This document shows, one piece after another, positions 13,651 to 31,401 of a DNA stretch of 32,000 nucleotides. The first letter of the stretch is position 1. Each line of letters begins with the position of its first letter. The DNA comes from Candidatus Omnitrophota bacterium (GTDB lineage: Bacteria; Omnitrophota; Gorgyraeia; Zapsychrales; JANLHA01), in contig OY759724.1 in the NCBI GenBank assembly GCA_963662715.1, positions 2,490,001 through 2,522,000 on the forward strand, written 5' to 3'. A model generated the notes under the pieces. The model did no database searches and had not been told where the DNA came from. It saw only the letters and a list, made by a program, of their open reading frames with translations. A program made the translations under genes and the position numbers.

Positions 13651-13653
13651 TAA

Positions 13654-13953: not shown

Positions 13954-14073
13954 CGACAGTTTGTCGCGTACGTGCAAAATTTGTTTTGGGCATGTCATGA
14001 TTTTTGCGTGGCTTCAACTGAGATTGATTAGTATTTTATGTCATGTCCATTGTGATTTTCCTTAAGGCTTCTT

Positions 14074-15154
14074 GTGAAAAAGGCTAAAATTAATACTTTC
14101 CGAATATCTGCATTTATTTCGATTGCATCTATTTTTTTTGCTGGGTGCGTATCTGTATCCAAGATTCATCAAGCAATTAGCGCTGATAACGCGGCAGAAG
14201 TCCGAAGAATTATTACTGATGATGAGAACGCTGTTAATGCAATTGATCAGCAAGGGAATACTCCTTTGCATGTGGCATCGGTACGTGGTGATTCGGAAAT
14301 AGTTGAGTTGCTTATCAAGAAGGGAGCCCTTATTGATGCTGTTAATACGGCTGGCCGTACTCCTTTGATGGCTGCCATTCTTTCAGGTAAGACATCTGTA
14401 GCCAACGTTCTAGTTGCAAAGGGAGCAAACGTAAATGCCAGAGATCGTCAAGGATGGACTCCGGTTCTTTTGGCAGCACAGGAAGGCACATATGAACTTT
14501 TAAAAATGCTTGTTGATGCCGGAGGAAATGTTTTTAATAAGAATAATGAGATGGTGACAGCTCTTCATGTCGCCAGCTTAAAAGGGAATGAGGAATTTGT
14601 CCATTTTTTTTATAGGAAAAGAAGTTAATGTCGATAGTGTCACGTTGCAAGGGCTTACTCCATTACATTTTGCAGTTATGAATGATCATATTTCTGTTGC
14701 TGAAATATTAATAGAAAAAGGAGCAACACCAAAATTTGCTGCATCCAATGTTTATATCACAATCAAGACCCATTTAATTTTTGCCGAATATTATAGGAAG
14801 TATTGGGATTGCGACAAGGCCGTTCATCATCTTTCTACGGCCATTAAATATCATGATGAACACAATGATTCTCAGAACATCGTGAAGTCTTTAACTGAGC
14901 TGAGGTTATGGAGATTGCAATGTTTAGCGCCTATTCTTTTTCCAATTGCTTACCTAGATGGATGCATGTCTGGGCATATCCCTCAATTGGAGAATCAATG
15001 GGAGACAGAAATCCGGAATATTGAGGCTGAACAGCTGAAACTCGTAGATAGTATTGAAGAAACTAGAAATAAACTTTTTTGTTATGAGCAATCAGATAAA
15101 CGAAACGAGATTGAAGAATGTATGGGAGAGATAGATAATCCTCTCTTTCCTTAG
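14074..15154 (+). pseudogene. ankyrin-repeat lipoprotein gene interrupted by a +1 frameshift in a T8 tract
   Basis: GTG start and lipobox FFAGC. ANK repeats continue across the two listed ORFs (14074-14628 and 14588-15154). Removing one T from T8 (14604-14611) gives the continuous reading ...GNEEFVHFFIGKEVNVDSVTLQGLTPLHFAV... Confidence 0.8.
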
Positions 15155-15340
15155 AACTAACGTATTTCGTTAAAGTTAAAATAAATTAGTTTTTGTAAGG
15201 GGAGACGGTATCTGGTGTTTTTTGATTTAAGATTTTTAGACATGAGGGAAAGGGGATACAAAATGAATTTAAGCGAATTCAGACTCAGGGATATCATAAT
15301 AAATGTGGAATCCTGTACGTTTTAAAATGAGGAGGTTGAA

Positions 15341-15673
15341 ATGATTGTATGGACTGGGAAAGGATTTGTGGTTTTTATATTCATTATGTTAGCCGTAATA
15401 TGCTCGGAATATGTCTCAGAATTTTTGACAGGGGACGAACAGTTTTATGACCAAAATCCATGGGTTCTTATGGTTGGAATGATGGTGGCTGCAGTGTGTA
15501 TCTATGTATTTCATCGTTTCTACCTTCTTCGCGAAAAGTCAAAGATCGTCATAGATAAAGAAACTGGCGAGGAGCTTGATCTAAAAGAATCGCATTCGCT
15601 TTTTTTTATGCCCGTTAAGTGGTGGCCACTAATTATGATCTTTTTGGGATTCATCTGGTCAAGGTCACCGTAA
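15341..15673 (+). CDS. small integral membrane protein (three predicted TM helices)
   Basis: Strong SD (GAGGAGG) 7 nt upstream and three hydrophobic segments. Confidence 0.6.
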   Translation: MIVWTGKGFVVFIFIMLAVICSEYVSEFLTGDEQFYDQNPWVLMVGMMVAAVCIYVFHRFYLLREKSKIVIDKETGEELDLKESHSLFFMPVKWWPLIMIFLGFIWSRSP

Positions 15674-15788
15674 TGCAGAAGACATTATCTTTATCCTTAA
15701 AATGAGATATAAAGAGGTAATCCTTATTCAAATTATAGGACAAGTATAAGATATGTATCTGCGAATACTTAGAGTAAAGGAGGCCTAT

Positions 15789-16427
15789 ATGAGGGAAAAA
15801 AGAGTGCTAGGAATTGTTTTTATTTTGGCAGTTAATTTAATGAGTAGCGGTTGCGGATTATTGCCTAGAGCAAAATTAACACTAACTCCAGAACCAAATT
15901 CCATAGTTGTCGATTATTCAAAGAAATGCGGAAGAGTACAGGTCAATAAACCTGATCTAAGTCAAATGACTGAGTTTGATAGGAAAATGATATATGGATT
16001 TGCCAATGAATTAGAGAATAGCGGACTCTGTGAAGAAGTATTTTATCACACACTACCAGAAGGCCCGGTTGATCTGGCCCTTGATCTCAGCTTTGAAGCA
16101 ACGCCTCACTTGTTTTGGGATGAAGAGAATGCTACAAATGAAGAATGGAAACAAATGAATAAACAAGTTCTTCCCAAGACTTTATTATTAACTTTGTCTT
16201 TAGGTATGATTCCTGCGCCTTATAATGAGGATTACTATTTAAAAGGCAAAGCTGTTATTTATAAGAATAATAAAGAAAAAGGAGTAGTTGATGGTCAGTT
16301 CCATGCCCATTGGCACGGTACTGCAATGGGGATCATTGCTATTGAAGAAGAAACGAAAGAAGAATTCAAAAAGGTTTTATATAAACAATTAATTACAGGA
16401 ATTACCGATTATTGTGAAAGTAAATGA
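15789..16427 (+). CDS. lipoprotein, unknown function
   Basis: AAGGAGG lies 6 nt upstream of the ATG at 15789. MREKRVLGIVFILAVNLMSSGC carries a lipobox. Confidence 0.65.
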   Translation: MREKRVLGIVFILAVNLMSSGCGLLPRAKLTLTPEPNSIVVDYSKKCGRVQVNKPDLSQMTEFDRKMIYGFANELENSGLCEEVFYHTLPEGPVDLALDLSFEATPHLFWDEENATNEEWKQMNKQVLPKTLLLTLSLGMIPAPYNEDYYLKGKAVIYKNNKEKGVVDGQFHAHWHGTAMGIIAIEEETKEEFKKVLYKQLITGITDYCESK

Positions 16428-16873
16428 AAATATATGGTTTGCAGAAGAGAGGGTCGCCGGATATGATTAATTCAACAAAAAGTCAGTTCATCTGTTTGTT
16501 TTTTTGTTTGTTTTTTCTTGGGTGCGGTTCGGTTCACAGTCAGTATATTTATGATGATTCTTACAAGGAGAATAGTCCGGTTAAGAGTGAGAAATGCTAT
16601 GATGCGGCAGTGTTGTTGAATATTGATATGGAAAAGACTAAATACATATGTCGCAGATTTTTAATGGAGAAAGGCATTACTATTACTGCGGATACCGATA
16701 TTTCTATAGAGGCTAGTCAAAAAAATGGACATATTGCAATTCAGTATGAAAAGGTTACAAAAGATTTAACATTTGTGACTGTGGGAACCGAGAAACAGGA
16801 CTTTTGGGGTGGATTCTTGGATTCATGTGAAATCGTTGACGCTATTATAGAAAAGGCCAATGGCTTAGAATGA
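16424..16873 (+). CDS. lipoprotein, unknown function (alternative start 16463)
   Basis: ATGA overlap with the upstream gene. Lipobox FFLGC in ...FICLFFCLFFLGCGS. Confidence 0.6.
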   Translation: MKIYGLQKRGSPDMINSTKSQFICLFFCLFFLGCGSVHSQYIYDDSYKENSPVKSEKCYDAAVLLNIDMEKTKYICRRFLMEKGITITADTDISIEASQKNGHIAIQYEKVTKDLTFVTVGTEKQDFWGGFLDSCEIVDAIIEKANGLE

Positions 16874-17004
16874 TCTAGAGTTAGTATCAGGAGTATTTCC
16901 TACATTATGCCTGTGGCGGCGTCTTAGTTCCCCAGGATGGGACACAAAGAATAGTTATTAAACTTGACTATTCCCTGGCATCTTGTCACAAGGTAATTGA
17001 TTAG

Positions 17005-17678
17005 TCTTCAATTCGTCCCGCCCAGGGGAGGTTTGTCCTATCTTGTACAATTGCTGAAGAACTGATCGAAAAACTTACTTGGGAAAACAGCAAAACAGCT
17101 AATACCTTGCAGGGGTATTTGAACTATTTGTCCTACTATCCTGCAGGAAAATTTTCTCAGGAGGCACAAGCCCAGGTGAGCAAGCTTTCCAAGGAGGTCC
17201 TTGGCAAACGAACGTGCGTGTTGACTTCGGAACCGCAGCCGTTTCTAGAGTTTTATATGATCGGGAATCCTTATGAGTCTGGGTTTGCGAATACAAAGAT
17301 GGTGTCCAAAGGAGAGGTCAAGGACAGGGAACCACCTGAAGGTTTTATTTATGCCCTAGTCCGATGGGAAATTGAATCTAATAAAAATTTCAGTTTTAAT
17401 AATTATGACCAAAACTTATATTTGGGAAAGGAGGAGCTGACGCGATATCTCCGGCCAATCGGCCTCCCTTCTAATATGAAGAATGGGCAGGAGGATACGA
17501 TGTGGTGCGCTTTAAACAGCATTATCTCCATATAAGTGTCAAAGTTAATGCCGGAGAACTATTGATCTACGAGAGTTTATACGAGGTCCCGAAAGACGAA
17601 GTCAATCAATGCGAACTTGGTTTCTTGGGGAATAGTTTTGCCCTGAAAGAATTAATAAGAAATAATGATGGTAAGTAA
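17005..17678 (+). pseudogene. degraded gene: start-less N-terminal fragment plus a frameshifted Ig-like (DUF4352-like?) C-terminus
   Basis: The frame is open from 17005 but has no ATG or GTG; the ORF track uses TTG at 17107. After the stop at 17535, the +2 frame continues with plausible protein sequence (GYDVVRFKQHYLHISVKVNAGELLIYESLYEVPKDE...) to 17678. Confidence 0.35.
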
Positions 17679-17946
17679 AAACAAAAACTTTGGCTACCTT
17701 ATACCCATTTGTATAATAGGTTAAGAATATTATAAAGTGACAAATGATGGAATTTTTATGAATTTATTGAATATTCAGCACTAGAGTTGTAATAACTGAA
17801 TGCAAATTAAAATTTAAGAATAAAAACGTTTTCTTATCTTGGCCGAGAAGGTATTCGTTTTATAACTGATTGTAATTATTAGAGATGTATACAAGCAAAT
17901 AATGAATTGCGTGTTTATTGTAGGTGACAAAATGAAAGGAGAAGAC

Positions 17947-18972
17947 ATGTTTATTACTCATTGCAGGAGGGCAAGCCGCTGCAAGTCAGTCGGAAAATTA
18001 TTGGTCCTTGTGATGGTCTTGTTTTTGTCTGGATGTACGACATTGTATGAAGTTAAACCGAATTTAGTTGCGAACTTCAAGCAATCGATCATTCCTAATG
18101 AGGATCAAACTCTAGTATATTTCATTCGAGGAAGTGCTTTTTCTGGTGGTGGCCGCAAGATATGGTTGGGGTGGAATGACCGAGCTATGGCGAGTTTGGC
18201 CTCGGGTACACATGCGTCTTTTTTGATGGATGCTGGCATTAATACAATTAATATCGTGGAAACCAAAATGCCGCTTCTTTTTCATAAGTTGGATAATCGA
18301 GGAGGAGAAACAATATTCCTTTCGTATGAATATAAAAATGTCAAGATCGTAGAACTTGAAAGAGATCTTGGAATTTCAATGGTTATGCAAACGAAGGAAA
18401 TACCAATCATTGAGCCACCGCGGAAAAATGATGGATATCCTTTGGATTTGCTTAACCCTGGATTAGTTGATTTGTATTTGATGAAAACGACCGACAGGCA
18501 AAAAGAACCCAACGAAAATAAAGCGATAATAACTTTTATAAGACCCATAAAATATGCAGAGGGGGTAGCATTTGGAATTTGGGATGAGAATAGTTTTCTC
18601 GGGAGTTTAAAAGAACAGACCTATTTCCAGATCGCTGTTGATCCGGGTAAGCACACGTTTTTAGGTAAAGCTGAGCAGTGGTCAGTATTACAGGCAGAAG
18701 TCGAGGCCGGTAAGAAATACTACATCGAAGTTAAGGCTAAACTGGGAATGACAGTTGTGCGTATGCAATTATTGCCTTTAAAAGCCAAGATGTCTGGGGA
18801 AATGAAGAAATGGATGAATACTTCTCAGCTATTGACGTTAGATAAAAACGCCATCAACGATGATGTGCAAGAGCGCCTGGATAAAGCATTGCCTTTAATA
18901 CGATCAATTTTAGAGAAAGTAGCAAAAGGGGAACTGAAACCCAGATTTTTAAAGGTGTCAGATGGAATATAA
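17947..18972 (+). CDS. lipoprotein with two DUF2846-like repeats
   Basis: AGGAG lies 6 nt upstream of the ATG at 17947, with lipobox LFLSGC. Two similar modules are present (LVYFIRGSAFSGG...ASLASGTHASF and AIITFIRPIKYAEG...GSLKEQTYFQIAVDPGKHTF). Confidence 0.65.
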   Translation: MFITHCRRASRCKSVGKLLVLVMVLFLSGCTTLYEVKPNLVANFKQSIIPNEDQTLVYFIRGSAFSGGGRKIWLGWNDRAMASLASGTHASFLMDAGINTINIVETKMPLLFHKLDNRGGETIFLSYEYKNVKIVELERDLGISMVMQTKEIPIIEPPRKNDGYPLDLLNPGLVDLYLMKTTDRQKEPNENKAIITFIRPIKYAEGVAFGIWDENSFLGSLKEQTYFQIAVDPGKHTFLGKAEQWSVLQAEVEAGKKYYIEVKAKLGMTVVRMQLLPLKAKMSGEMKKWMNTSQLLTLDKNAINDDVQERLDKALPLIRSILEKVAKGELKPRFLKVSDGI

Positions 18973-19279
18973 GTTAGGTTTTCGTGTTTCTGTTCCCAAG
19001 ATGTTTTCGATTAAATCAATCACAGCTTGAAGTTGTTGGGAAAAATATGCCTGTTTAACGTGATTGAAAGAAAGGAAAGCAAAGATGACACTTGCTAGAG
19101 AAGGGAAGGAATATAAAATTCATATCAACAAAATAAAATCTCAATTGGGGATCATGAGATATAATAATCTTAATGGGACATAGTTTTTTTTGATCCAAAT
19201 ACTACGGAGAAGAAATGAACAATCACGTTTTTAAGAAAAACATATTAGATCGTATAGTGAATTCTTAGAAGGAGGTTAT

Positions 19280-20500
19280 ATGTGGGAATGTCCTGATTGC
19301 AACACTACTAATTGGGATTCTGATTCAAAATGTCATCAATGTGGTTGCGACCTTTCTAATAAAGAAAAGTTAGCTAAAGTTTCTTCTCAGAAGATTAAAA
19401 GTCCTAGAGCGGATAAGCGTTCAAATTGGAAATATGCATTAGTCCATTTACTTTTAACCCCAGCGCTTTTTGTCTTAAGCATATTAATACTTAGTTTTCT
19501 TAGGGTTCCTGATGATGCATCTGTCTATTATTGTCTCTTGATTATCGGAGGCTATCCGATTGCGAAGCTTATCGGCTTTAATCCTATGTACATAGCCCTG
19601 CCGATATTTTGGCTCTATAGATATTCAGGCATGTATATATCATTTAAGGGAATGGCCTATATTGTGTTCGTGCCTTCTTATGTATCAGTTCAAGTCCATA
19701 CTCTGCTGTTGCTCATTCCAGATATGTATAAAAATTGCGTTTCTTGGCTCAAAGCTATAAAATGGCCGCTTCGCATCCTAACTGTTCTCTCTACTATCGT
19801 CATTATTTTAGGTGCCATTTCCTGGATGACAAACTGGTTCCGCCAGGGATCTTTCGATTATTATGCGAGTTCGTCTGGAGAGGACCGCATAAGATACGCT
19901 ATCGCATACAAGCGGCTTGATTTGCTGAAGAAAAGTATTAGGCACGGCATGGAGTTGGAGGACTATCTGATGTGGAAAGCCGGTTATCAGGAGAAAAACG
20001 AGAAAATTCTTGAATTTTTGATCAACAGCGGCCTGTCAGTGAATGCGGTAACCGGTTCAGGAGAAACAGCCCTTCATTCGGCAGCAGAAAGTGGAGAGGT
20101 AGAAAATATTCGGTTTCTAATAAGCCATGGTGCTGATCCTAACATTAGAGATGACGCAGGTCAGACGCCACTTCATCAAATAGTTCTTTCGGATTATATT
20201 CCAGATGAAAAGGTTGCTGAGATAATACAAATCCTAGTTGACGGTGGAGCAGATGTCAATGCTGTTACGAAACCGAACATTCATTCGGCTTACAAAAATT
20301 GGAGTGGAGGAGATATGCCTCTTCATTATGCGGTTAAGCAAAGAAAAAATTTTAAGAAAGAGCCCTATCCTCCAAAAGTTCGATCCGTTGCTACTCTTCT
20401 AGAACTGGGTGCTGACGTAAATGCCAAAAACAGCGATGGTCGTACGCCATTGGAGATTGCTACTAATGAGGAAATTAAGAAAATTCTTTTGGAACATTAA
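19280..20500 (+). CDS. zinc-ribbon / multi-TM / ankyrin-repeat protein
   Basis: GAAGGAGG SD. N-terminal CPDC-x10-CHQC, about 5 hydrophobic helices and C-terminal ANK repeats (GETALHSAAESGEVENIRFLISHGADPNIRDDAGQTPLH...). Confidence 0.8.
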   Translation: MWECPDCNTTNWDSDSKCHQCGCDLSNKEKLAKVSSQKIKSPRADKRSNWKYALVHLLLTPALFVLSILILSFLRVPDDASVYYCLLIIGGYPIAKLIGFNPMYIALPIFWLYRYSGMYISFKGMAYIVFVPSYVSVQVHTLLLLIPDMYKNCVSWLKAIKWPLRILTVLSTIVIILGAISWMTNWFRQGSFDYYASSSGEDRIRYAIAYKRLDLLKKSIRHGMELEDYLMWKAGYQEKNEKILEFLINSGLSVNAVTGSGETALHSAAESGEVENIRFLISHGADPNIRDDAGQTPLHQIVLSDYIPDEKVAEIIQILVDGGADVNAVTKPNIHSAYKNWSGGDMPLHYAVKQRKNFKKEPYPPKVRSVATLLELGADVNAKNSDGRTPLEIATNEEIKKILLEH

Positions 20501-20554
20501 GGATTCATAGGATAAAAATATTAGAAGCATAAAAAATTAGGAAGAGATATTAAT

Positions 20555-20707
20555 ATGAAGCATCATCTATTAGCAGATAAATGGATCTTGTTCAATAACG
20601 CGGGTGCAAAGCCAGAGATTATTGCTAAAAAACAGAATGAGCATATAGATGTGCTTGATTCTGATTTATTTGCTAAAATTATGAAGGAATCAGGAGCTGA
20701 AATATGA
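20555..20707 (+). CDS. tiny hypothetical ORF (50 aa), below the ORF-track cutoff
   Basis: Hand translation: MKHHLLADKWILFNNAGAKPEIIAKKQNEHIDVLDSDLFAKIMKESGAEI. AGGAAGAG lies about 10 nt upstream. Confidence 0.3.
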   Translation: MKHHLLADKWILFNNAGAKPEIIAKKQNEHIDVLDSDLFAKIMKESGAEI

Positions 20708-20847
20708 AGAAACGGATGTCGATATTAGATAAAGCGGAAATTGCCATGAAAAAGGCCGTTGAAAGAGTCATAGCAGAACATAAACGGTCTGGCAGACCTT
20801 TAGAGGTATGGAAAGACGGCAGAGTGAAAAAAATCATTGTTAAATAA
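20704..20847 (+). CDS. tiny hypothetical ORF (47 aa) overlapping the previous one by ATGA
   Basis: Hand translation: MKKRMSILDKAEIAMKKAVERVIAEHKRSGRPLEVWKDGRVKKIIVK. The 4-nt overlap suggests coupling. Confidence 0.35.
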   Translation: MKKRMSILDKAEIAMKKAVERVIAEHKRSGRPLEVWKDGRVKKIIVK

Positions 20848-20865
20848 AAAAGATTCTACGTCTAT

Positions 20866-20899
20866 CCAGTTGCAAAATTCATTTACTAGGGGGAGCCAT
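20866..20899 (+). repeat. degenerate tRNA-Asn 3'-end remnant (copy b)
   Basis: CCAGTTGCAAAATTCAT...GGGGGAGCCAT. The last 11 nt are identical to 9380-9390, and the first 17 nt are identical to 25217-25233. Confidence 0.65.
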
Positions 20900-21118
20900 A
20901 TAAAAAGGGACGCCTTTTAGGCGTCCCTTTTTATATGCTTGCTCTGCGTAACGAGATACCCAGAGAGCGAAGCGAGCGGTTCTGACCGAGCCCGCCAACA
21001 TGCGAAGCGTTCAAGAGGGCGAGGAAATGGTGGCGAGTTGGAACGAGCCACCAGAGTCCTCGCGACCGAGCATGGCGAGGGAGTGCCAACAGTCAGAGGA
21101 CTGTGGCCGGGGGAGTTA
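20890..21118. repeat. 229-nt structured repeat, copy A
   Basis: Identical to 23187-23415 except at 20947 (C vs T) and 20985 (A vs C). Contains a hairpin terminator, GCGAAGC motifs and a split tRNA-Asn 3' end. Confidence 0.9.
20902..20932. terminator. bidirectional hairpin terminator inside repeat A (also present at 23199-23229 in repeat B)
   Basis: AAAAA-GGGACGCC-TTTTA-GGCGTCCC-TTTTT. Confidence 0.7.
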
Positions 21119-21126
21119 TATAACAT

Positions 21127-21165
21127 AACCCGTTGTGAACAAGTTGTTTGCAACGGGTTTTTTTT
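21127..21165 (+). terminator. intrinsic terminator just after repeat A
   Basis: AACCCGTTG (21127-21135) pairs with CAACGGGTT (21151-21159), followed by a T-run. Confidence 0.65.
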
Positions 21166-21171
21166 GCTTGT

Positions 21172-21200
21172 TTGACGATTTTAAGGGTATGTGATAGACT
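21172..21200 (+). promoter_or_regulatory. sigma70-like promoter of the leuA leader
   Basis: TTGACG (21172-21177), a 17-nt spacer, then TAGACT (21195-21200). Confidence 0.5.
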
Positions 21201-21224
21201 TATACCACTATGCAAGATTATTCA

Positions 21225-21275
21225 ATGAAGTTAAACAACCTACTTCTCGGACTACTCCTATCTTTATTGAGATAG
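21225..21275 (+). CDS. candidate Leu-rich leader peptide MKLNNLLLGLLLSLLR
   Basis: 9 of 16 codons are Leu (TTA, CTA, CTT, CTC, CTA, CTC, CTA, TTA, TTG). It sits in the 5' arm of a long hairpin upstream of a terminator and leuA. There is no clear SD. Confidence 0.55.
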   Translation: MKLNNLLLGLLLSLLR

Positions 21276-21332
21276 GCCGTGAGAAGAGGTGTGTTTATTC
21301 ATTGAATAAAAAATAAATAATTAAAAAATGAA

Positions 21333-21369
21333 GCCACCGCTTCTTAATGAGGCAGGTGGCCTTTTTTTT
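21333..21369 (+). terminator. attenuator terminator upstream of leuA
   Basis: GCCACC (21333-21338) pairs with GGTGGC (21355-21360), followed by C and T8 (21362-21369). Confidence 0.7.
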
Positions 21370-21428
21370 GAATAGTCGACCACCTTAATCTTTAGGAAGT
21401 AGTGGTGTCAAAAGAAAGGTGGTGTATT

Positions 21429-23099
21429 ATGAAAAAAGTTGAAATGCCATTCAAGCGTTATCGCCCATATCCGCAAGTAAATCTTTTTGACCGCGAATGG
21501 CCAAATAAGACAATCGTAAAAGCTCCGATTTGGTGCAGTATTGACCTGAGGGATGGTAATCAGGCTTTGAGCAACCCAATGAATGTTGATGAAAAAATAA
21601 TAATGTTTGAGCTTCTTGTAGAAATCGGATTTAAGGAAATTGAAGTTGGTTTTCCTTCTGCGTCTGATGTTGAATATCAGTTTATCAGGAGACTTATCGA
21701 AGAAGAACGAATACCTGATGATGTTACGATTCAAGTGCTGACACAAGCCCGTGAACATTTAATAAGAAGAACTTTTGATTCCGTGCGGGACGCCCAAAAA
21801 GCAATCATTCACTTATATAATTCCACTTCAACAGTGCAAAGGGAAATTGTCTTTAGAAAAAATAAAGAGGAAATAAAAAGTATTGCCATAAACGGAACAA
21901 AGTTAATAAAGGAATTAACTGATGCAGAAAAGAATGATGGCATACGCTTTGAGTACACACCTGAAAGTTTCCCAGGGACAGAGTTGGATTATGCCTTGGA
22001 AGTTTGCTCTGCGGTAATGGATGTGTGGGGTCCATCACCTGACAATAAAATAATCATAAATTTGCCAACAACTGTTGAGATGTCAACGCCCAATATTTAC
22101 GCTGACCGCATTGAATGGTTCTCTCGTCATATTAATAAAAGAGAATCAGTTATTATCAGCGTACATACTCATAACGACAGAGGAACAGGTGTGGCTTCTG
22201 CCGAATTAGCTGTTATGGCAGGAGCTGAGCGTGTCGAAGGAGCTTTATTCGGCAATGGGGAGAGAAGTGGCAATATGGATATTGTCACAATGGCTTTAAA
22301 CCTTTTTAGCCAAGGGGTAAATCCTGAGCTTGATTTCTCGGACATCAATAGAATTGCGGATATTTACAAAAAATGTACAAGAATGGATATTCATCCTCGA
22401 CATCCCTATGTAGGAGAGTTGGTCTATACTGCTTTCTCTGGGTCACATCAAGATGCAATTAACAAAGGAATGAAAAAACAACGAGAAAATGAAAGCAATA
22501 TTTGGGATGTGCCATATCTTCCCATTGACCCCAAGGATGTTGGTCGGACTTATGAGGCCATTATCCGTATAAATAGTCAATCTGGGAAAGGCGGTGTTGC
22601 TTTTGTTTTAGAGAACGATTGGGATTTTAAGATACCCAAAGAGATGCAACCTGAATTTGCTCAGGTTATACAGCGGATGACAGAGAGTGTTAATAGCGAG
22701 TTATCATCGCAAGAAATAAAGAATTGTTTTGAAAAGGAATATATAAAAAGGACAGGACAATTTCAATTAAAATCTTGTGCCATTCATTCTGAAAATGAAA
22801 ACTCTAAAGAAACTATTGTCTGTGCTTTAATAAAAAATGAGCAACAAGAAATAACAATTCGTTCAAAAGGAAATGGTCCTGTTGATGCTTTTGTTTGCGG
22901 CACCAAGAGACATTTCAACATTATTTTCGATGTGGCATATTATTCTGAACATTCCCTTTCGCAAGGAGCCGATGCAGAAGCTGTTGCTTACATCGGGATA
23001 AAAACTGGCGAAAGCAAAATTGTCTTTGGAGTTGGGATTGATGCAAATATTAGCATAGCTTCAATTAAAGCGATTGTGAGTGCTATAAATCGTATGTAA
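21429..23099 (+). CDS. leuA: 2-isopropylmalate synthase, long form
   Basis: MKKVEMPFKRYRPYP...WCSIDLRDGNQAL...EVGFPSAS...HTHNDRGTGVA..., with a C-terminal LeuA allosteric domain. AGGTGG lies upstream of the ATG at 21429. Confidence 0.9.
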   Translation: MKKVEMPFKRYRPYPQVNLFDREWPNKTIVKAPIWCSIDLRDGNQALSNPMNVDEKIIMFELLVEIGFKEIEVGFPSASDVEYQFIRRLIEEERIPDDVTIQVLTQAREHLIRRTFDSVRDAQKAIIHLYNSTSTVQREIVFRKNKEEIKSIAINGTKLIKELTDAEKNDGIRFEYTPESFPGTELDYALEVCSAVMDVWGPSPDNKIIINLPTTVEMSTPNIYADRIEWFSRHINKRESVIISVHTHNDRGTGVASAELAVMAGAERVEGALFGNGERSGNMDIVTMALNLFSQGVNPELDFSDINRIADIYKKCTRMDIHPRHPYVGELVYTAFSGSHQDAINKGMKKQRENESNIWDVPYLPIDPKDVGRTYEAIIRINSQSGKGGVAFVLENDWDFKIPKEMQPEFAQVIQRMTESVNSELSSQEIKNCFEKEYIKRTGQFQLKSCAIHSENENSKETIVCALIKNEQQEITIRSKGNGPVDAFVCGTKRHFNIIFDVAYYSEHSLSQGADAEAVAYIGIKTGESKIVFGVGIDANISIASIKAIVSAINRM

Positions 23100-23165
23100 C
23101 CGCAAAGTCATTGGATAATTTTCTGACTTTGTCTGAGAGACAGTAAGCCCTAAACTCCTCCAAAA

Positions 23166-23196
23166 AGTTGCGAAACGCGTCCTCTTGGGGAGCCAT
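23166..23196 (+). repeat. degenerate tRNA-Asn 3'-end remnant (copy c)
   Basis: AGTTGCGAAACGCGTCCTCTTGGGGAGCCAT retains the GTCCTC and GGGGAGCCA blocks of the tRNA T-arm and acceptor. Confidence 0.55.
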
Positions 23197-23415
23197 ATAA
23201 AAAGGGACGCCTTTTAGGCGTCCCTTTTTATATGCTTGCTCTGTGTAACGAGATACCCAGAGAGCGAAGCGAGCGGTTCTGCCCGAGCCCGCCAACATGC
23301 GAAGCGTTCAAGAGGGCGAGGAAATGGTGGCGAGTTGGAACGAGCCACCAGAGTCCTCGCGACCGAGCATGGCGAGGGAGTGCCAACAGTCAGAGGACTG
23401 TGGCCGGGGGAGTTA
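23187..23415. repeat. 229-nt structured repeat, copy B
   Basis: See copy A. The offset is exactly 2297 nt. Confidence 0.9.
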
Positions 23416-23470
23416 ATATCCTAAGCCGTTGTGAGATAATGTCTTGAACATTCAAATATGTGCGATTTGA

Positions 23471-24253
23471 CTAAACGTCAGGTTTCCAAAATCTCACCAC
23501 TGAAGCCTGGCAGAAGAAATCGAGCTGTTCCATAAAAAGAAATTTGGAATTAAGAAACCAAAGTGGCATTAAGATAGGTAAGGTCATGATACGGATTTTT
23601 CCGGAATGTTTCTTCACAAAGGTCCGCAGTTTTTTCCGCTTCGGGTAAGCATTGCCATTTTCGTCATATAGTTTCGGCGTGAAAAGTGAAATATTAAAAT
23701 GAGGGAAGCAAATATCTGCTTTAAACCCATATTTCTTTCCAAATAAAGCAAGCCCGGTCGGAGTGGGGTTGTTGATATGCCCGGGAGCTATGCTTTCTAC
23801 AAAATCATATTTACAAGTCGAAGATACCCAGAAAAGTCCGTTAGGTTTAAGGACACGGAAAGCTTCACTGAAGATATTTTTATTGATATTTTGAGGAACA
23901 TGCTCATAAACATTATGGCACATAATGAAATCAATGGATGTGTCTTCAATAGGAAGGGGGTCTTTGAGGTTATGCACACGGCTGTCAATCCCGAGGTTTG
24001 CTTTTGACCATTCAACGGCACTCTTTGCCCCTTCCAAAGCAATAACATGCAGGCCGTTTTCCTGGCAGCATTTCGTGAAGAACCCTTCCCCGGCGCCCAG
24101 GTCAAGTCCAGATGCGGAATGTCCGACGTATTTGATGACTTTCTCGACAAGGGCTTGATATGTTTTCCAGCGGTCAGTAGACCAGCCTTTTATCCTCTGT
24201 TCATAATGATCGTCATTTACAATGCCGTCTGCCTGGGCATGGTTGGTTTGCAT
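23471..24253 (-). CDS. class I SAM-dependent methyltransferase
   Basis: Motif I LDLGAGEGFF and a post-I acidic residue (VIALEG), plus a Methyltransf_11/23-like core. Confidence 0.75.
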   Translation of the reverse strand: MQTNHAQADGIVNDDHYEQRIKGWSTDRWKTYQALVEKVIKYVGHSASGLDLGAGEGFFTKCCQENGLHVIALEGAKSAVEWSKANLGIDSRVHNLKDPLPIEDTSIDFIMCHNVYEHVPQNINKNIFSEAFRVLKPNGLFWVSSTCKYDFVESIAPGHINNPTPTGLALFGKKYGFKADICFPHFNISLFTPKLYDENGNAYPKRKKLRTFVKKHSGKIRIMTLPILMPLWFLNSKFLFMEQLDFFCQASVVRFWKPDV

Positions 24254-24544
24254 GTTTAATCCTGATGTATAAATGCGGGAATTTATTTAGAATATTTTAG
24301 CATGCGTAATAAAGGAATTGTATGTGAATATATTTTTTGTTGGATTTGTTTAAGAAGGTTAGTATAAGATGAGAATAAAACAAGGCGAATTAGACTGAAT
24401 TAATATTTAAGTGTTTTTATTTTGATTCCTTGTAGAGAATTTTGATAACTAAATTAAATCTGATAAGATAGTAATTGTGATTTTTTGTGGTATGATGGTT
24501 CCATATCCTTATATAATTTTAACAATTGATACATGTGAGGGAAC

Positions 24545-25060
24545 ATGAAAATAATAGATTTAGGATGTGGTCGGAGTAAAGTCCCCGGGACGATTGGAAT
24601 TGATATGGACCCGGAATCTGATGCAGATATCATTCTCGATATTGATAAGGAGCCTATACCTTTAGAAGATAATTCTGTTGATAAAGTAAGATCATCCCAA
24701 TTCTTTGAGCATTTGGAAGATCCTTTCCGTGTCTTGAGAGAAATATATCGGATTTTAAGGCCAGGTGGTGAAATTTTTATAGAAGTTCCTCATTACACAT
24801 CACACATCGCACATGGTTTTGGTCATAGGCAGTATTACTCTCATAAAGAACTCGTACGTATGCTAACATACGAAATTAGCTGTGAGATTGTAAAAGCGGA
24901 AATTACTTTTTATAAATCTTTTAGAATGGCAGGGATTCATTATCTTGCCAATAAGTTTCCTACAAATTATGAGCGTTTCTGGGCATATATTCTTCCGGCG
25001 GAAAATATAAAGATAACCGGTAGAGTTAAAAAAGATGTGCGAGCAGAGAAAGGTAAATGA
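24545..25060 (+). CDS. small class I SAM-dependent methyltransferase
   Basis: IIDLGCGRSK...GIDMD...FEHLEDPFRVLREIYRILRPGGEIFIEVP. Confidence 0.75.
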   Translation: MKIIDLGCGRSKVPGTIGIDMDPESDADIILDIDKEPIPLEDNSVDKVRSSQFFEHLEDPFRVLREIYRILRPGGEIFIEVPHYTSHIAHGFGHRQYYSHKELVRMLTYEISCEIVKAEITFYKSFRMAGIHYLANKFPTNYERFWAYILPAENIKITGRVKKDVRAEKGK

Positions 25061-25105
25061 AGATTTTGCTAGAAAAATAAGTGTGCAGAAGAAAGGAAGA
25101 AAGAA

Positions 25106-25165
25106 GAAAGTGCCAGTCCCCTCAAAGGGACAGGTCGAATGAATTGAAAAATAATTAGAAGGACA
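25106..25165. repeat. short repeat module, copy E (GCCAGTCCCC-loop-GGGAC...)
   Basis: About 60 nt that aligns by eye with 31402-31462. Its first ~20 nt also align with 27844-27863. Confidence 0.6.
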
Positions 25166-25216
25166 GTAGACGTTTTAGATATAGAATTGTGATATAGATA
25201 TTCCACTATTCCTCCC

Positions 25217-25253
25217 CCAGTTGCAAAATTCATCCACCAGGGGGAGCCATTTA
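25217..25253 (+). repeat. degenerate tRNA-Asn 3'-end remnant (copy d), candidate distal att junction
   Basis: GGGGGAGCCATTTA (25240-25253) is identical to 9380-9393. Extending to 36 nt gives 28/36 identity by hand alignment. Confidence 0.65.
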
Positions 25254-25292
25254 GAAATATCCAGCGCACCATTTTGCGACTGGTTAACAATC

Positions 25293-25325
25293 TGCCCTCT
25301 TTGAACTTCTTGTTCGAAGAGGGCA
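25293..25325 (+). terminator. long hairpin (14-bp stem) followed by ATTTTATTAT
   Basis: TGCCCTCTTTGAAC-TTCTT-GTTCGAAGAGGGCA. Confidence 0.45.
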
Positions 25326-25385
25326 ATTTTATTATCGCGAAAAAACCACGGCCATGAGGCCGTGGATGAAGTGTAATGACCCTAG

Positions 25386-26177
25386 TTAAGCAAGGATTTT
25401 TTTGTGTAGATCGAGTTCTTTGTTAATCCATCTTTTGTAAAACTCTTCAGGCGTAGCGAAGAATAATGCCTGATGAGGGAAATCGGTGTTGTAATCGTTG
25501 ATCCAACGCTTGAAGTCATCTTGAAGATCAAATGGGTTGTCCCATTCATTGATCCAAATGAAATCTTCTTTGATTCTGCGGATGACGCGTTCGGTGTCAG
25601 CATTGCCTTTGGGGTTGGACCAGGTTGAGAAGATCTGCTTGATGCCGGCCAGTGAACAATTAAGCCTGAAGCGCCCGCTGGTGGGCTGACAGCCATTGTC
25701 CGAGATCAGGTGCAGGTCATGATTCAGTGTGTCTTTGATGCCGTTTGGGAATCGGTTGTTGATGGCCATTTCCAGGGCATCCAGCCAGTCATCAGTCTTT
25801 GACTGGATGTTGAGGCTATAGCCGATAATTTCTTTGGTATACCAGTCTAGGACGATGGTCAGATAGAACCAGCCCCAGGTCGCCAGTTTGATTTTTGTCA
25901 TATCGATACCCCAGAATTGATTGGGGTGAGAAGCTCGTGGTTTCCGGCGGAGGTTGCCACGCTTGGCCTTCAAGCGATCGTTGGGTTGAACCGTTAATTG
26001 ATTTTCTTGCATGAGGCGTTGGACACAATTTTTGCCAATTTTGTAATGTTTACGGTTGTTTAAATAGGCCCAGACTGAACGGTATCCCCAGAGGGGATGT
26101 TGCTTTTTAATTTGTCGGATTTTGACTAAATGTTTTTGGTCTTGTTCGATACGCTTTAGAGAACGGCGTCTTTTCAT
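25386..26177 (-). CDS. IS3-family transposase OrfB (DDE/rve integrase core)
   Basis: FWGIDMTK (D), LISDNGCQ (D) and NADTERVIRRIKEDF (E). Probably expressed as an OrfAB fusion by a -1 frameshift. Confidence 0.85.
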   Translation of the reverse strand: MKRRRSLKRIEQDQKHLVKIRQIKKQHPLWGYRSVWAYLNNRKHYKIGKNCVQRLMQENQLTVQPNDRLKAKRGNLRRKPRASHPNQFWGIDMTKIKLATWGWFYLTIVLDWYTKEIIGYSLNIQSKTDDWLDALEMAINNRFPNGIKDTLNHDLHLISDNGCQPTSGRFRLNCSLAGIKQIFSTWSNPKGNADTERVIRRIKEDFIWINEWDNPFDLQDDFKRWINDYNTDFPHQALFFATPEEFYKRWINKELDLHKKILA

Positions 26178-26479
26178 AACTCGTACTCGTTTTTTTTTAG
26201 TTCAACGGTCAAGTCGCCGATGATGCGTTTGAGTTTGGCGTTTTCTTTTTCAAGACGTTGCTCTTTCTGGGACTGTTGTTTGATGTCAAAGGCCATATGG
26301 CATTCTTTGAGGAACTGGTCGCGCCATTTGTAATATTGGGTTTGGCCAATTTGGTATTTGTTACAAAGTTTACTGATGTCGATTTTCCCGCTGAGGCCTT
26401 CAAGCACGATTTGGGTCTTTTGTTGGCTGGTCCATTGGCGTTTTTTCATGGGAATTGGGCTCCTTTCCTTGGAACTCAA
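26174..26479 (-). CDS. IS3-family transposase OrfA (HTH plus leucine zipper)
   Basis: WTSQQKTQIVLE...YYKWRDQF plus a coiled-coil region. The slippery CTA AAA AAA AAC lies near the 3' end (minus strand, about 26190-26201). Confidence 0.85.
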   Translation of the reverse strand: MSSKERSPIPMKKRQWTSQQKTQIVLEGLSGKIDISKLCNKYQIGQTQYYKWRDQFLKECHMAFDIKQQSQKEQRLEKENAKLKRIIGDLTVELKKNEYEL

Positions 26480-26564
26480 TTCTACACCATTTGTTTAAAT
26501 TTGTTAACTAGGGTCACTATAGAAGCGTTTCCGAGGTCTTGGTTGCGTATGATACAATGGGTGC

Positions 26565-26993
26565 ATGAGATATTTGAAGCAAGGACACACAGTTTACTAT
26601 GCCAGATACCATATTGTCATTTGTACAAGATATAGGCGAAAGATATTGCGATGGGGTTCGGCGGAGTATGTCAAAAGATGCGTTTTGGGAGTGATGAGAC
26701 GGTATCCTGAGATCATCATTGAAAAAGTAAATACAGATTTAGATCATATGCATCTTTTGGCATCAATTCCGCCGAAGATGGCTGTAAGTCATGCAGTAAA
26801 TCTGATTAAGAGTAACACAGCAAAGCTGATGAGGCGGCGATATAAGTTTTTAGACAAGATGTATGTGAAAAAGGCAGGGATATGGTCAGCAGGGTATTTT
26901 GTGTCAACGGTTGGAGCCGACGAAGAATCGATAAAGCGATACATCGAATATCAAGGCCGGGAAGACCGAGGACAAACGCAGATAGAATTTTAG
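26565..26993 (+). CDS. tnpA: IS200/IS605-family Y1 (HUH) transposase
   Basis: YHIVICTRYRRKIL, HUH motif DHMHLLASIPP and catalytic Tyr context SAGYFVSTVGADEESIKRYIEYQ. Confidence 0.9.
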   Translation: MRYLKQGHTVYYARYHIVICTRYRRKILRWGSAEYVKRCVLGVMRRYPEIIIEKVNTDLDHMHLLASIPPKMAVSHAVNLIKSNTAKLMRRRYKFLDKMYVKKAGIWSAGYFVSTVGADEESIKRYIEYQGREDRGQTQIEF

Positions 26994-27195
26994 CTGCGTT
27001 TGCACAGTCAAAATAGTTAAGAAACCACGGCCGTGAGGCCGTGGAGTTTCATTTAACGGGAAAGATATAAATATTGAGGTAGTACATAAAACTATAAATA
27101 GCAAAATATTATGATAAAACGACACGGCGCTGTACTTAGCTTCCTCGTATGTTATATTAAAATAAAGAGCGGCGTAATATGAGTACGGGAGTATT

Positions 27196-27795: not shown

Positions 27796-27843
27796 GTAAA
27801 TAAAGTAGGTGCCAAATTAGGTCACAGGGTGCTGGCAGAAAGG

Positions 27844-28011
27844 AAGGGGCCAGTCCCCAAAAGAGTGGAGGGGCCGAAGTTCTGCCCGAACCCGCCAACA
27901 CGCGAAGCATTCAAACGGGCGAGGAAAAGGTGGCGAGCGACCGAGGACGAAATGTCCGAGGAAGTGCCGAAATCTCCGCGTTTCGGCCCAGAGCGAACAA
28001 CCAGAGTCCTC
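27844..28011. repeat. diverged third copy (C) of the structured repeat
   Basis: 27879-27937 aligns without gaps to 20979-21037 with 6 mismatches in 59 nt. CGACCGAG, GAGTGCC-like and CCAGAGTCCTC blocks are also shared, but in a different order. Confidence 0.75.
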
Positions 28012-28190
28012 ATTTTGAAAAATATATTCGCAAACTTTAGTAAACCTGTAATGATTTAAATAATTTACTTTGTAATTATTTTAGAGTATTATATTTTTAT
28101 CCTAAATTAATAAAATATTCCATGGTCTTTCAATGGGAGGAGCGATCTGTCTTTCCTTTGAGCCGTTTCATCCTGAGTAAATGTGCGAAC

Positions 28191-29867
28191 ATGAACTGTG
28201 TCATTTTCCAACCCCACGTTAGTGCATCCCGCTGGTTTAATAAAATCGTGATTCTTGTCATATCTTTCTGCCTCGGTGGCTGTGCAAGCTTTCCCTTGCA
28301 TACAGCGATCCGTCAGCAGGACCGAAACCGGGCTAAAGAGTTAATCAACCGGAAAAGAGGGCTTAATGACTTCAACGAGCAAGGGCTTTTGCCGATTCAT
28401 TTGGCGGCAAAAGCAGATGAGGTCGAATTGGTCAAGGTCATGCTGAACGCTGGTGTAGACATTGACGCGCGCGCTAATGATCTGGCAAAAAACGTAACCC
28501 CCTTATTTGAAGCGACGGCGGCCGGGCATACACGGATGATAGAGTTCCTGCTCAAAAATGGGGCCATTCCTGACCTGGCAACAAGCGATGGCTTGACACC
28601 AGTCATGCGTGCCGCACAAGACGGTAATATCAGTGCCCTCCAGGTTCTCTGCAGAAATAAGGCCGATCTTGATCTGCAGTTACCCAATGGGTATACGTCA
28701 TTGATGCTTGCCATACAGCACCGGCATTCACGGTGTATCCAAGAGCTTCTTGAAAACGGCGCTGATCCTGACATTTTGAATGCTGACGGCAGATCAGCTT
28801 TGTGGCTTAGTATAAAAGAAGATGAAAGTGATGTTGTTGAAATGTTGGCAAAGAACAAAGTGGATATAAACAGTATTAATAGTGGGATGGTCCCGCTTAT
28901 ACAGGCGTTTTCAGATGGAAACATAAAAATAGTAGAAACATTGATCAGGCTCGGGGCGGATGTCAATGTGCAAAGCAGTGAAGGGTGGACTCCACTGGGA
29001 TGGGCGGCGCTGAATGGAAAACCACGCTTGGTTGAATTATTGCTGCAACACGGCGCAGACATCGATGGCGCGGATATTTCCGGTCAAACTCCGCTGTATC
29101 TGGCGGCAATACAGAATAATGCCGAAGTGGTTCTTATCTTGGTCGAAAACGGAGCGGACATTAAGGCAAAGACGGATGAAAATACGACGGTTTTACACGC
29201 AGCTGCTCTGGGGGAACATCCGGATATGATTGATTTCTTTTTGAGGCTAGGACTACGCCCTCAAGTGGTTACTGGCGGGGCTGAAGATGCCTATGCAACG
29301 GCTTTGGCATATAAGCGTTATGGGCAATTAAATCTGAAAAATGGTGATACTGCCGGGGGCAGGGAAGCGTATGAAACGGCAGCTGAACAATTTTCACTCG
29401 CGGCCGGGAAGTATTCCGAACTGATTCAGGAGTATGCCCAAAAAATTCAATCAAAAAAGATGAAAGAATTTTTGGCAAAAACGGCCCTTGTTCTGGCCCA
29501 GGGGGTTGTCTATGCAGCTCAGTCGTACCAGGCTGCAAGCAATTACAAAAGTTATTCTGAGGTAGCCGCTTTAAAACAGGCATCGTCAAACGGATCTGGC
29601 GTATCCGGATATTATAGTGCCTTAAATGCCTACCGGGAGGCCTATGTCCCGGTGTCCCATACGACGGGAGGTTTCCCATCTACCATTAAGTCAGGGACCG
29701 GCGATATAAGACTGTTCACTGCTGCAAAAAACAGGTGCAACCTGCGGGCCGTAACAAGTGCCGGCTATGCACAAGAATGTTTAAGGGCCACGGAATGCTT
29801 TGCCGGAAACGATATGGCAACAGAAATTCTGGAGTGTATTCAACACGCGGAAAGAAAAAATCTTTGA
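28191..29867 (+). CDS. large ankyrin-repeat lipoprotein with an Ala/Tyr-rich helical C-terminal domain
   Basis: The ATG at 28191 gives MNCVIF...ILVISFCLGGCAS (lipobox). About 10 ANK repeats are followed by ~190 non-ANK residues. Confidence 0.8.
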   Translation: MNCVIFQPHVSASRWFNKIVILVISFCLGGCASFPLHTAIRQQDRNRAKELINRKRGLNDFNEQGLLPIHLAAKADEVELVKVMLNAGVDIDARANDLAKNVTPLFEATAAGHTRMIEFLLKNGAIPDLATSDGLTPVMRAAQDGNISALQVLCRNKADLDLQLPNGYTSLMLAIQHRHSRCIQELLENGADPDILNADGRSALWLSIKEDESDVVEMLAKNKVDINSINSGMVPLIQAFSDGNIKIVETLIRLGADVNVQSSEGWTPLGWAALNGKPRLVELLLQHGADIDGADISGQTPLYLAAIQNNAEVVLILVENGADIKAKTDENTTVLHAAALGEHPDMIDFFLRLGLRPQVVTGGAEDAYATALAYKRYGQLNLKNGDTAGGREAYETAAEQFSLAAGKYSELIQEYAQKIQSKKMKEFLAKTALVLAQGVVYAAQSYQAASNYKSYSEVAALKQASSNGSGVSGYYSALNAYREAYVPVSHTTGGFPSTIKSGTGDIRLFTAAKNRCNLRAVTSAGYAQECLRATECFAGNDMATEILECIQHAERKNL

Positions 29868-29881
29868 AAGGGGGGAGTAAA

Positions 29882-31385: not shown

Positions 31386-31401
31386 AAATGAAGGGGCGAA
31401 A

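Follow-up and report, generated by a model that had tools for sequence, protein, structure and literature searches.

A near-identical 229-nt repeat around leuA as a putative attachment-site module in a tRNA-Asn-anchored array of units in Candidatus Omnitrophota

Two near-identical non-coding repeats of 229 nt, one on either side of the core biosynthetic gene leuA, are the subject of this analysis of a 32,000-nt stretch of a Candidatus Omnitrophota genome (assembly GCA_963662715.1, contig OY759724.1, positions 2,490,001 to 2,522,000; hereafter the window, whose own numbering is used throughout). The repeat is most plausibly an attachment-site module without an integrase, duplicated either through recombination between short cores or through homology within the 229 nt, a reading to which we assign a probability of roughly 0.6. 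The original prediction, made from the letters of the window, had offered several interpretations, of which the one as an att module or integrase-less mobilisable element was largely right and the one as a non-coding RNA is unproven. The structured repeat and its split tRNA end, exotic at first sight, would then be a junction module at a hot spot of integration.

An array of units anchored at tRNA-Asn

The sole tRNA gene of the window, tRNA-Asn(GTT) (9314-9389, + strand; called by ARAGORN and matched by the Rfam tRNA model with 69 bits), is the putative integration target, and its last bases, GGGGGAGCCA (9380-9389), form a core that recurs downstream. The motif GGGGAGCCAT occupies four sites in the window (9381, 20890, 23187 and 25241) against 0.09 expected by chance, and six GGGGAG cores downstream of the tRNA gene, in register with the unit boundaries and including two sites of GGGGGAG followed by TTA at the ends of repeat copies A and B, partition the interval 9390-25250. 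The order after the tRNA gene is an 11.5-kb unit, copy A, the leuA unit, copy B and a methyltransferase unit. The repeats had been described as a pair, which is real but overlooks this wider array with its six cores as well as a partial third copy, copy C (27838-28011).

The ends of the units carry conserved sequence in addition to the cores. The pattern AGTTGCRAAA-N9-13-GGGGAG occurs three times in the window against none expected, each time closing a unit: at the right end of the 11.5-kb unit, where together with the core it forms an attR-type junction (CCAGTTGCAAAATTCATTTACTAGGGGGAGCCAT, 20866-20899, + strand) that is 88% identical to 25217-25257, at the right end of the leuA unit (AAAGTTGCGAAACGCGTCCTCTTGGGGAG, 23165-23192, + strand), and at the right end of the methyltransferase unit (25217-25250, + strand). 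At the left ends, the leuA and methyltransferase units start alike, with TTATATAACATAACCCGTTGTGA and TTAATATCCTAAGCCGTTGTGA, the pattern in both cases (21119 and 23416) being a core, about 9 nt and the hairpin ATAACCCGTTGNGAAC; the left end downstream of copy B reads TTAATATCCTAAGCCGTTGTGAG and is akin to the one that follows copy A. Cores stand at both ends of the 229-nt module, of the leuA unit and of the methyltransferase unit, and recombinase and transfer genes are absent, as in cis-mobilizable elements (CIMEs).

The first unit is a low-GC island (9390-20895, + strand) in which GC content is about 0.32-0.48 and mostly below 0.44, versus about 0.44-0.57 over most of the region upstream of the tRNA gene. 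For comparison, loci of related genomes were collected by scanning with the 3' 25-mer of tRNA-Asn, one genome per species, which gave 110 loci, mostly from Omnitrophota (these and the other fetched loci are cited below by L numbers). The upstream gene order Tex-MscS-DnaX-RecR-tRNA-Asn is kept in many of these relatives and synteny is lost downstream; low GC and loss of synteny on one side of the tRNA gene, with conserved synteny on the other, are in their sequence features a signature of foreign DNA.

Anatomy of the repeat

Copies A (20890-21118) and B (23187-23415), both on the + strand, are 229 nt long each, lie at an offset of 2297 nt and differ at 2 of 229 positions (20947, C/T; 20985, A/C), so that the coordinates and differences given in the original prediction were found again; beyond these limits a weaker likeness continues for about 20 nt on each side (20868-21138 versus 23166-23434, 94%). 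Sequence, repeat comparison and predicted folds describe copy A as a non-coding module that runs from core to core. It begins with a first core, GGGGAGCCA (20890-20898), equal to the 3' end of tRNA-Asn, and continues, as had been noticed, into a palindromic terminator-type hairpin (20897-20937) with the stem GGGACGCC/GGCGTCCC, whose palindrome is lengthened by A5/T5 and ATAT; this hairpin is not among the calls of a simple terminator scan. There follow a GC-rich modular segment (20938-21022), a pseudo T-arm with an expanded loop (CGAGG...GAGTCCTCG, about 21023-21064, from predicted folds), a 44-nt hairpin insert (21065-21108) and a second core, GGGGGAG (21109-21115), all on the + strand.

The last part of the module resembles a remodelled tRNA-Asn 3' half. 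The 11-mer GAGTCCTCGCG at 21054-21064 is identical to tRNA-Asn positions 9370-9380 and is followed by 44 nt and then GGGGGAG, as previously claimed. Since CGAGG (at about 21023) pairs with CCTCG (21059-21063) in the predicted fold, where the two enclose a GGTGGC/GCCACC hairpin, the tRNA T-stem appears to be retained with an expanded loop. The latter hairpin and the helix 21047-21061/21096-21107, both drawn earlier, are present in predicted folds, and the mini-hairpin motif GCGAAGC does occur twice, whereas the proposed likeness of TGGTGGCGAGTTGG to the tRNA D-arm is weak and lacks statistical support. The tRNA-Asn remnants of the repeat comprise 11 nt and 7 nt identical to the 3' end plus the CGAGG/CCTCG pseudo T-stem, and neither ARAGORN nor Rfam calls a tRNA cloverleaf in 20860-21170 or 23160-23470.

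Other identities were considered for the repeat. Coding support is absent on both strands, which hold only short open reading frames (ORFs) of at most 78 aa, and the idea of coding DNA was rejected, as the differences between copies A/B and copy C are not spaced in threes and the ORFs are merely short. A remnant of tmRNA, RNase P or a group I intron was dismissed for want of any ARAGORN or Rfam signal; the suggested Rfam check of the repeat likewise matched no family. A Xer/dif-like site at GTTATATAACATAAC was discarded too, because the resemblance concerns one arm only and the ATAA-N6-TTAT dyad is absent.

Within the window, the 80-nt core of the 229-mer recurs solely in copy C (27838-28011, + strand), a diverged partial relative of the GC-rich part, whose 81 aligned columns (27857-27937) show about 80% identity; copy C also has CCAGAGTCCTC and is without core or hairpin. 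A module of GCGACCGAG, hairpin and CGAGGAAGTGCC is found in copy C and, in a shortened form, in copies A and B. A closely related 35-mer, GCGACCGAGGACGAAATGTCCGAGGAAGTGCCGAG (corresponding to 27936-27978 of copy C), occurs exactly in 48 metagenome contigs (L118-L165), mostly within small GC-rich repeats with GTCATTGCGAG at the start and GGCCAATCTC at the end; it matches no Rfam family and, by these sequence matches, appears to be a widespread small repeat. Because the GC-rich part shares these modules, it looks like an accretion of short repeat modules. In L048 the hairpin of the 35-mer has a compensatory variant, GGAC..GTCC having become GCAC..GTGC. Another intergenic repeat family, with the head GAAGGGGCCAGTCCCC and 77% identity between its copies, lies at 25079-25166 and 31378-31463, each copy immediately downstream of a + strand ORF, and this head also opens copy C (27838-27862).

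A search for copies of the 229-mer outside the window had been suggested, and none were found: the 229-mer has no match in plasmids or phages, an exact 22-mer of its conserved core is absent from the genome and metagenome collections scanned, and relatives' loci hold no homologue of the core. By layout, the 229-nt unit would belong to a class of small elements that follow tRNA-Asn in relatives, described below; by sequence it seems private to the window.

The leuA unit between the copies

The DNA between the two copies was originally called a single-gene cassette. A single gene is indeed enclosed, but leuA forms a unit sufficient in itself, and relatives have this unit in the absence of the 229-mer. 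The unit (21119-23192, + strand; delimited by Pfam, promoter and terminator scans and nucleotide homology to relatives) contains, all on the + strand, a left-end hairpin or terminator (21127-21159), a promoter-like site (21172-21200), the leucine-rich leader peptide MQDYSMKLNNLLLGLLLSLLR (about 21210-21275; 9 leucines in 21 codons), an attenuator terminator (21329-21368) and leuA itself (21429-23099; 556 aa, with the Pfam domains HMGL-like, IPMS_D2 and LeuA_dimer). As judged from these elements, 21172-21428 is a classic leucine attenuator, and the enclosed gene is a complete transcription unit, a predicted self-contained cargo with its own promoter, attenuator and terminators. The attenuator region is kept at the nucleotide level in Omnitrophota L001, L002, L005 and L006.

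The nearest relatives of LeuA are found in Candidatus Omnitrophota metagenome-assembled genomes (MAGs), at 74-85% identity, and the leuA unit as a whole is present in five relatives, in five different gene neighbourhoods. Nucleotide homology extends over 21110-23201 in L002/L003 (82%), reaching from the very end of copy A into the very start of copy B, over 21128-23098 in L005 and over 21172-23117 in L001/L006, and in none of them do the flanks hold the 229-mer. L002 carries GGTGAG at both ends of the unit where the window has GGGGAG. In L005, the 5' side of leuA consists of GTCCTCGCG, a 26-nt hairpin and GGGAGCCA, and the 3' side passes directly into GGGGAGCCA and a terminator.

tRNA-Asn loci and serine recombinases in relatives

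The same cores, end motif and layout recur at the tRNA-Asn genes of relatives, which bears out the earlier view of the repeat as a remodelled pseudo-tRNA or att module with direct repeats of GGGGGAG at its bounds. Units with unrelated cargo end in the right-end motif, CCAGTTGCGAAA..GGGGGAG, in 14 loci of other genomes, mostly of Omnitrophota (L002-L004, L008, L051, L059, twice in L060, L076 from Velamenicoccus archaeovorus, L077, L087, L090, L106 and L143). By Pfam this cargo includes a MatE transporter, to which come what we take, from the translations, to be an HD-domain protein, a BrnT/BrnA-like pair, a hydrolase and membrane proteins. Downstream of cores in L059, L060, L087 and L143, again with differing cargo, lies the left-end hairpin ATAACCCGTTG. 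In 12 loci a terminator hairpin stands directly after tRNA-Asn, then comes a GC-rich segment 80-350 nt long, and after it the 3' end of the tRNA appears a second time; in L117 this end is split as in the window (GTCCTCGCG, 39 nt, GGGGAGCCA); a split of GTCCTCGCG, hairpin and GGGGAG is common to L117, L005 and L001. As the 80-nt core has no homologue in these loci, membership of the 229-nt unit in this class of mini-elements rests on layout and short motifs rather than on alignment.

Duplication of such a module is also seen elsewhere. In L091, a 116-nt core-to-core module directly after tRNA-Asn recurs with 100% identity beyond a 660-nt unit (the two copies lie at 17-132 and 791-906 nt, counted in its orientation from the first base of the tRNA-Asn 3' 25-mer), which is the same architecture as that of copies A and B, arisen by an independent duplication in unrelated sequence. 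In L104 and L051, units of 1.7-3.2 kb are enclosed by repeats roughly 100 nt long (89% and 78% identity, respectively), made up of the tRNA 3' end and its flank.

A large serine recombinase gene with the domains Resolvase, Recombinase and Zn_ribbon_recom adjoins tRNA-Asn, convergent with it, in at least 20 of the 110 loci. The window itself has no recombinase, neither in the first unit nor elsewhere by Pfam, and the integrase-less, potentially mobilisable arrangement proposed originally is in keeping with both findings; since the gene is missing, all units of the window are integrase-less, like cis-mobilizable elements. Behind the methyltransferase unit lies, by homology to relatives, the left end of a further island (25251-25335, + strand, with a terminator at 25293-25325): 25233-25330 matches L050 at 83%, L022 at 81% and L084 at 76%, similar flanks are found in L100, L061 and L039, and in relatives this kind of sequence lies between the tRNA gene and the recombinase, whose convergent gene follows within about 150 nt. 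The thought that 25251-25330 might be the native tRNA-Asn flank, which came from its being shared by five relatives, was dropped because in L022, L050, L084 and L100 a recombinase follows it. In the first unit, the left end 9390-9450 matches the L067 flank at 77% and its start, 9390-9410, is near-identical to the L084 flank that precedes a serine recombinase. The homology of the window's downstream flank stops at 25340, where the end of an IS200-type element with a nested IS3 element begins.

Two further details concern the putative attachment sites. An A-tract, hairpin and T-tract stand directly after CCA in relatives, and it is possible that the hairpin of the module is the original tRNA-Asn terminator. 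In serine integrase systems, the half-sites of attP and attB differ geometrically, in the spacing of an outer motif. The element arm here, AGTTGCGA-AACTC-GTCC..GGGGGAG, resembles the tRNA arm, GGTTCGA-GTCC..GGGGGAG, except that its outer motif appears to lie about 5-6 nt further out, a spacing that would fit this difference between attP and attB.

How the module may have been duplicated, and competing explanations

On the preferred reading, the module spans from a tRNA-Asn-derived core (GGGGAG followed by CCA) to the next core (GGGGGAG followed by TTA) and would sit in a tandem array of site-specifically integrated units that extends from the tRNA-Asn 3' end at 9390 to at least 25250. Its first part, the strong hairpin, would terminate transcription coming from the tRNA gene or the preceding unit; its second part would be the GC-rich short repeat modules; and its third part a reworked copy of the tRNA-Asn 3' half, in which the T-stem survives, the T-loop is enlarged and the acceptor strand is interrupted by a 44-nt hairpin; this third part would supply the second attachment core. 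With a core at each end, recombination from core to core could therefore move or duplicate the module, and ordinary homologous recombination within the 229 nt could have had the same outcome; either way the order module, leuA unit, module, methyltransferase unit would result. Any segment between two cores could be excised as a circle and inserted at a different core, such as one on a sister chromosome, and the 2297-bp circle predicted originally would be a natural product of recombination between cores. The second copy might have come from a circle of the module only that was inserted after the leuA unit, from a 2297-bp circle of module and leuA that was inserted at or within the resident module, or from two sibling elements with the module as their common left arm that integrated in tandem, and these three routes fit the data alike. 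Serine recombinases probably made the junctions, and the module may still be recombinogenic.

A number of observations weigh against this reading. Canonical serine integrases recombine only attP with attB, leaving an identity of 2 bp, and joining attL with attR requires a directionality factor. A core-to-core duplication of 116-229 nt is not expected from one canonical event, and because canonical enzymes join only attP and attB, core-to-core events need a relaxed or non-canonical choice of sites or else homologous recombination. The 44-nt insert before the second core would disrupt a normal half-site of about 20 bp. No recombinase was detected in the window, either by tblastn with a relative's recombinase (E >4) or by Pfam on the ORFs, and nhmmer finds no homologue of the 80-nt core in 165 relatives' loci (1.06 Mb). 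Finally, a structured element in four relatives, with compensatory base pairs that hint at a structural role beyond that of a scar, fails to connect with the repeat by sequence: its covariance model, R1, scores 6.6 bits (E ~6, not significant) at 21014-21073 and 23311-23370.

Several of these points would favour an inert scar, that is, decayed att DNA and a pseudo-tRNA fragment with no site-specific recombination and no present function, left by one homologous-recombination or replication-error event such as a Campbell-type insertion of a leuA circle via the 229-nt homology. The window without recombinase, the disrupted second core, the limited number of copies (just two near-identical and one partial, with no homologues elsewhere) and the folding near that of shuffles on the + strand, once the terminators are set aside, would all suit such a scar. 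We nonetheless consider it unlikely, since the boundaries of the repeat coincide with cores at both ends both in the window and, independently, in L091, a coincidence that random homology would hardly produce twice, and since the same cores delimit the leuA unit in L002 and L005.

A second alternative is that the GC-rich part encodes a structured small RNA whose 3' end mimics the tRNA-Asn T-arm and acceptor, the copies then being paralogous RNA genes between terminators. The segment is flanked by terminator-type hairpins at 20897-20937 and 21127-21159, and the fold of the whole 229-nt unit has z-scores of -7.8 and -8.0 against shuffles, but these striking values are due to the two terminator hairpins; without them z has modest values, -1.8 for the + and -2.9 for the - strand, the latter fold surpassing all 200 shuffles. 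Also in favour is a 120-nt element directly 3' of tRNA-Asn in L031, L038, L087 and L098 (partly also in L055 and L139/L165), at the same position as the repeat, which is closed by GGAGGACTCG/CGAGTCCTC, ends in GCGGGGGAGCCA and has the conserved loop GCCGAGCGATTAGCGAGGAAAAGG; in the four aligned relatives it forms a three-way junction with two covarying internal helices and compensatory change in 10 of 35 pairs and could be an undescribed structured RNA or DNA site with few members, the R1 model returning 7 matches in 650 kb and the family counting 5-7. The window repeat resembles this element in layout and short motifs only and, as stated, fails its model. Moreover, the fold of copy C is at chance level (z -0.8, no better than shuffles), no sequence relatives exist for covariation, a scan found no promoter-like site inside the unit, and no Rfam family fits: the tRNA alone passes the gathering threshold, and other matches at E <=10 are weak and driven by terminator hairpins. 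The RNA interpretation put forward in the original prediction, accordingly unproven, is in our estimate quite improbable. Still more doubtful is a miniature transposase-driven element, whether a miniature inverted-repeat transposable element (MITE) or an IS200/IS605-derived palindrome-associated transposable element (PATE), that inserts by GGGGAG and landed on both sides of leuA. It would account for a small, non-coding unit with sub-terminal hairpins at both ends, with GGGGAG immediately before each copy and again at its end, as well as for the modules held in common with small GC-rich repeats widespread in metagenomes, and an IS200-type transposase is present in the window. Terminal inverted repeats are absent, however, the window has no extra copy other than the partial copy C, which is without core and hairpin, the exact 22-mer is missing from the collection scans, and the supposed target is the tRNA-Asn end that serves the whole array. 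The hairpins, too, are unlike the ends of the resident IS200 element (CCACGGCC..GGCCGTGG; 25340-25366 and 27019-27045), and for this difference an IS200/IS605 end or PATE was ruled out.

A bolder extension of the attachment-site reading, which we regard as speculative and rather unlikely to hold, is that across Omnitrophota a structured landing pad with a decoy tRNA 3' end follows tRNA-Asn, where serine recombinases acting in trans shuffle small units in the manner of an integron. If it were true, units of one to a few genes, including the housekeeping gene leuA with its attenuator, would move in and out at cores and the non-coding module would itself be a mobile cassette, which would explain the exact core-to-core duplication in two unrelated genomes.

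Cargo, insertion sequences and other features

The 11.5-kb unit encodes, by Pfam, a HigB/HigA-like pair, ankyrin-repeat proteins, a DUF2846 protein and small ORFs. The HigB/HigA-like pair occupies 9607-10226, with the antidote domain PF21716 at 9921-10226. At least six ankyrin-repeat ORFs lie inside and beyond the island (11011-20500 and 28122-30781), and some of them are weakly like the Ank effectors of the Legionella Dot/Icm system, a likeness driven by the repeats. Near the right end of the unit, 20809-20852 is 82% identical over 44 nt to L001 8532-8574; the shared segment holds the last 11 codons and the stop (..GRVKKIIVK followed by stop) of a 47-aa ORF in the window and a 49-aa ORF in L001, the remainders of which are unrelated, and is possibly a small shared module.

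The methyltransferase unit (23416-25250, + strand) contains two methyltransferase genes identified by Pfam, one on the - strand (23471-24253) and one on the + strand (24545-25060). Beyond the array, an IS200/IS605-type element (25340-27045), with a Y1 transposase gene at 26565-26993 and matching hairpins at its ends, is split by an IS3-family element (25386-26479, - strand). This nest of insertion sequences occupies the exact place that the recombinase of the tRNA-Asn island has in relatives.

A group I intron (Rfam RF00028, 71-83 bits) interrupts tRNA-Asn in L025, L051, L067, L087, L098, L117, L143 and L148, and the tRNA-Asn of the window is intron-free. We know of no described case of a group I intron in tRNA-Asn.

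Comparison with known systems

The nearest described parallel is found in the ssrA islands of Dehalococcoides, which lie in tandem with 20-bp repeats of the tmRNA 3' end at their boundaries, show a conserved motif of 15 bp immediately upstream of every such repeat and carry a large serine recombinase on the reverse strand beside attL (McMurdie et al., 2011; PMC3146451). Fifteen of these islands are without integration module and have been proposed to be cis-mobilizable, and a conserved module contains tRNA-like sequence (PMC3146451). Direct repeats of a 3' end, an adjoining motif and integrase-less units are common to these islands and the array described here. The array differs from them in its target, which is tRNA-Asn rather than tmRNA, in its occurrence in Omnitrophota, in its shorter core (6-10 nt), in having units of as little as 0.2-3 kb, one of them non-coding, and in the lack of a recombinase gene in the window. 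Of the features that mark serine-type tandem islands at tRNA or tmRNA genes, direct repeats of the 3' end and conserved sequence on the element side are both present, and a recombinase next to attL, absent from the window, is found in relatives (at least 20 loci).

In the staphylococcal cassette chromosome (SCC), the serine recombinases CcrAB or CcrC insert cassettes at the 3' end of rlmH (orfX), repeats separate the elements, and members without ccr can be excised together with their neighbours. SCC and pseudo-SCC elements are thus like the array in being separated by integration-site repeats and in having recombinase-less members, but their target is a protein gene, their cassettes measure tens of kb and no fragment of a pseudo-target RNA lies between them. 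CIMEs are bounded by att sites, have neither integrase nor transfer genes, lie in tandem with related elements and are mobilised only by the recombinase of a neighbour. The att-site bounds, the tandem arrangement and the lack of integrase and transfer genes, the latter absent from the window by Pfam on its ORFs, are shared by the array. Unlike the array, the streptococcal systems use tyrosine integrases and have conjugative partners; the window shows no conjugation genes, and mobilisation is here putative. No tyrosine recombinase is found by Pfam among the window ORFs, nor is there one among the 25 of 66 family matches listed for 46 ORFs downstream of tRNA-Asn in relatives. Streptococcal CIMEs, and the accretion of elements at tRNA or fda sites, have been reviewed (PMC5704250).

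Integron cassettes resemble the units in being small, mostly single-gene and co-oriented, with unrelated functions and a recurring recombination site, and duplication of a cassette by excision and re-insertion would likewise give the order module, unit, module. In contrast to integrons, the array has no IntI and no attC R''/R' boxes (RYYYAAC/GTTRRRY), its units have their own promoters and terminators, and it is anchored at a tRNA gene. The integron attC was accordingly rejected: IntI is missing and, by inspection, the junctions read GAG/TTATATA and GAG/CCATATA, and the inverse-core candidates GCGTAAC and GTGTAAC do not fit.

A literature search on Omnitrophota genomic islands and tRNA found nothing relevant, and the hot spot, its conserved end motifs and the likely recombinase class are here identified for a poorly studied and mostly uncultured phylum. 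Such islands may be sought in Omnitrophota MAGs by three signatures, namely the core GGGGAG(CCA), AGTTGCRAAA at the right end and the hairpin ATAACCCGTTG at the left end. A core biosynthetic gene with a leader-peptide attenuator seems to travel here as a single-gene unit and, if the module were a functional decoy attachment site or RNA, it would represent a new way to protect or exploit a tRNA gene.

Taken as a whole, the array has the structure of tandem site-specific islands minus the recombinase, and it is distinct from an integron, a MITE or PATE, a full pseudo-tRNA and any Rfam family. Its architecture is of a known kind, that of ssrA islands, SCC and cis-mobilizable elements, encountered here in an understudied phylum, with two mildly unusual traits in the duplicated non-coding core-to-core module and in leuA as a single-gene unit.

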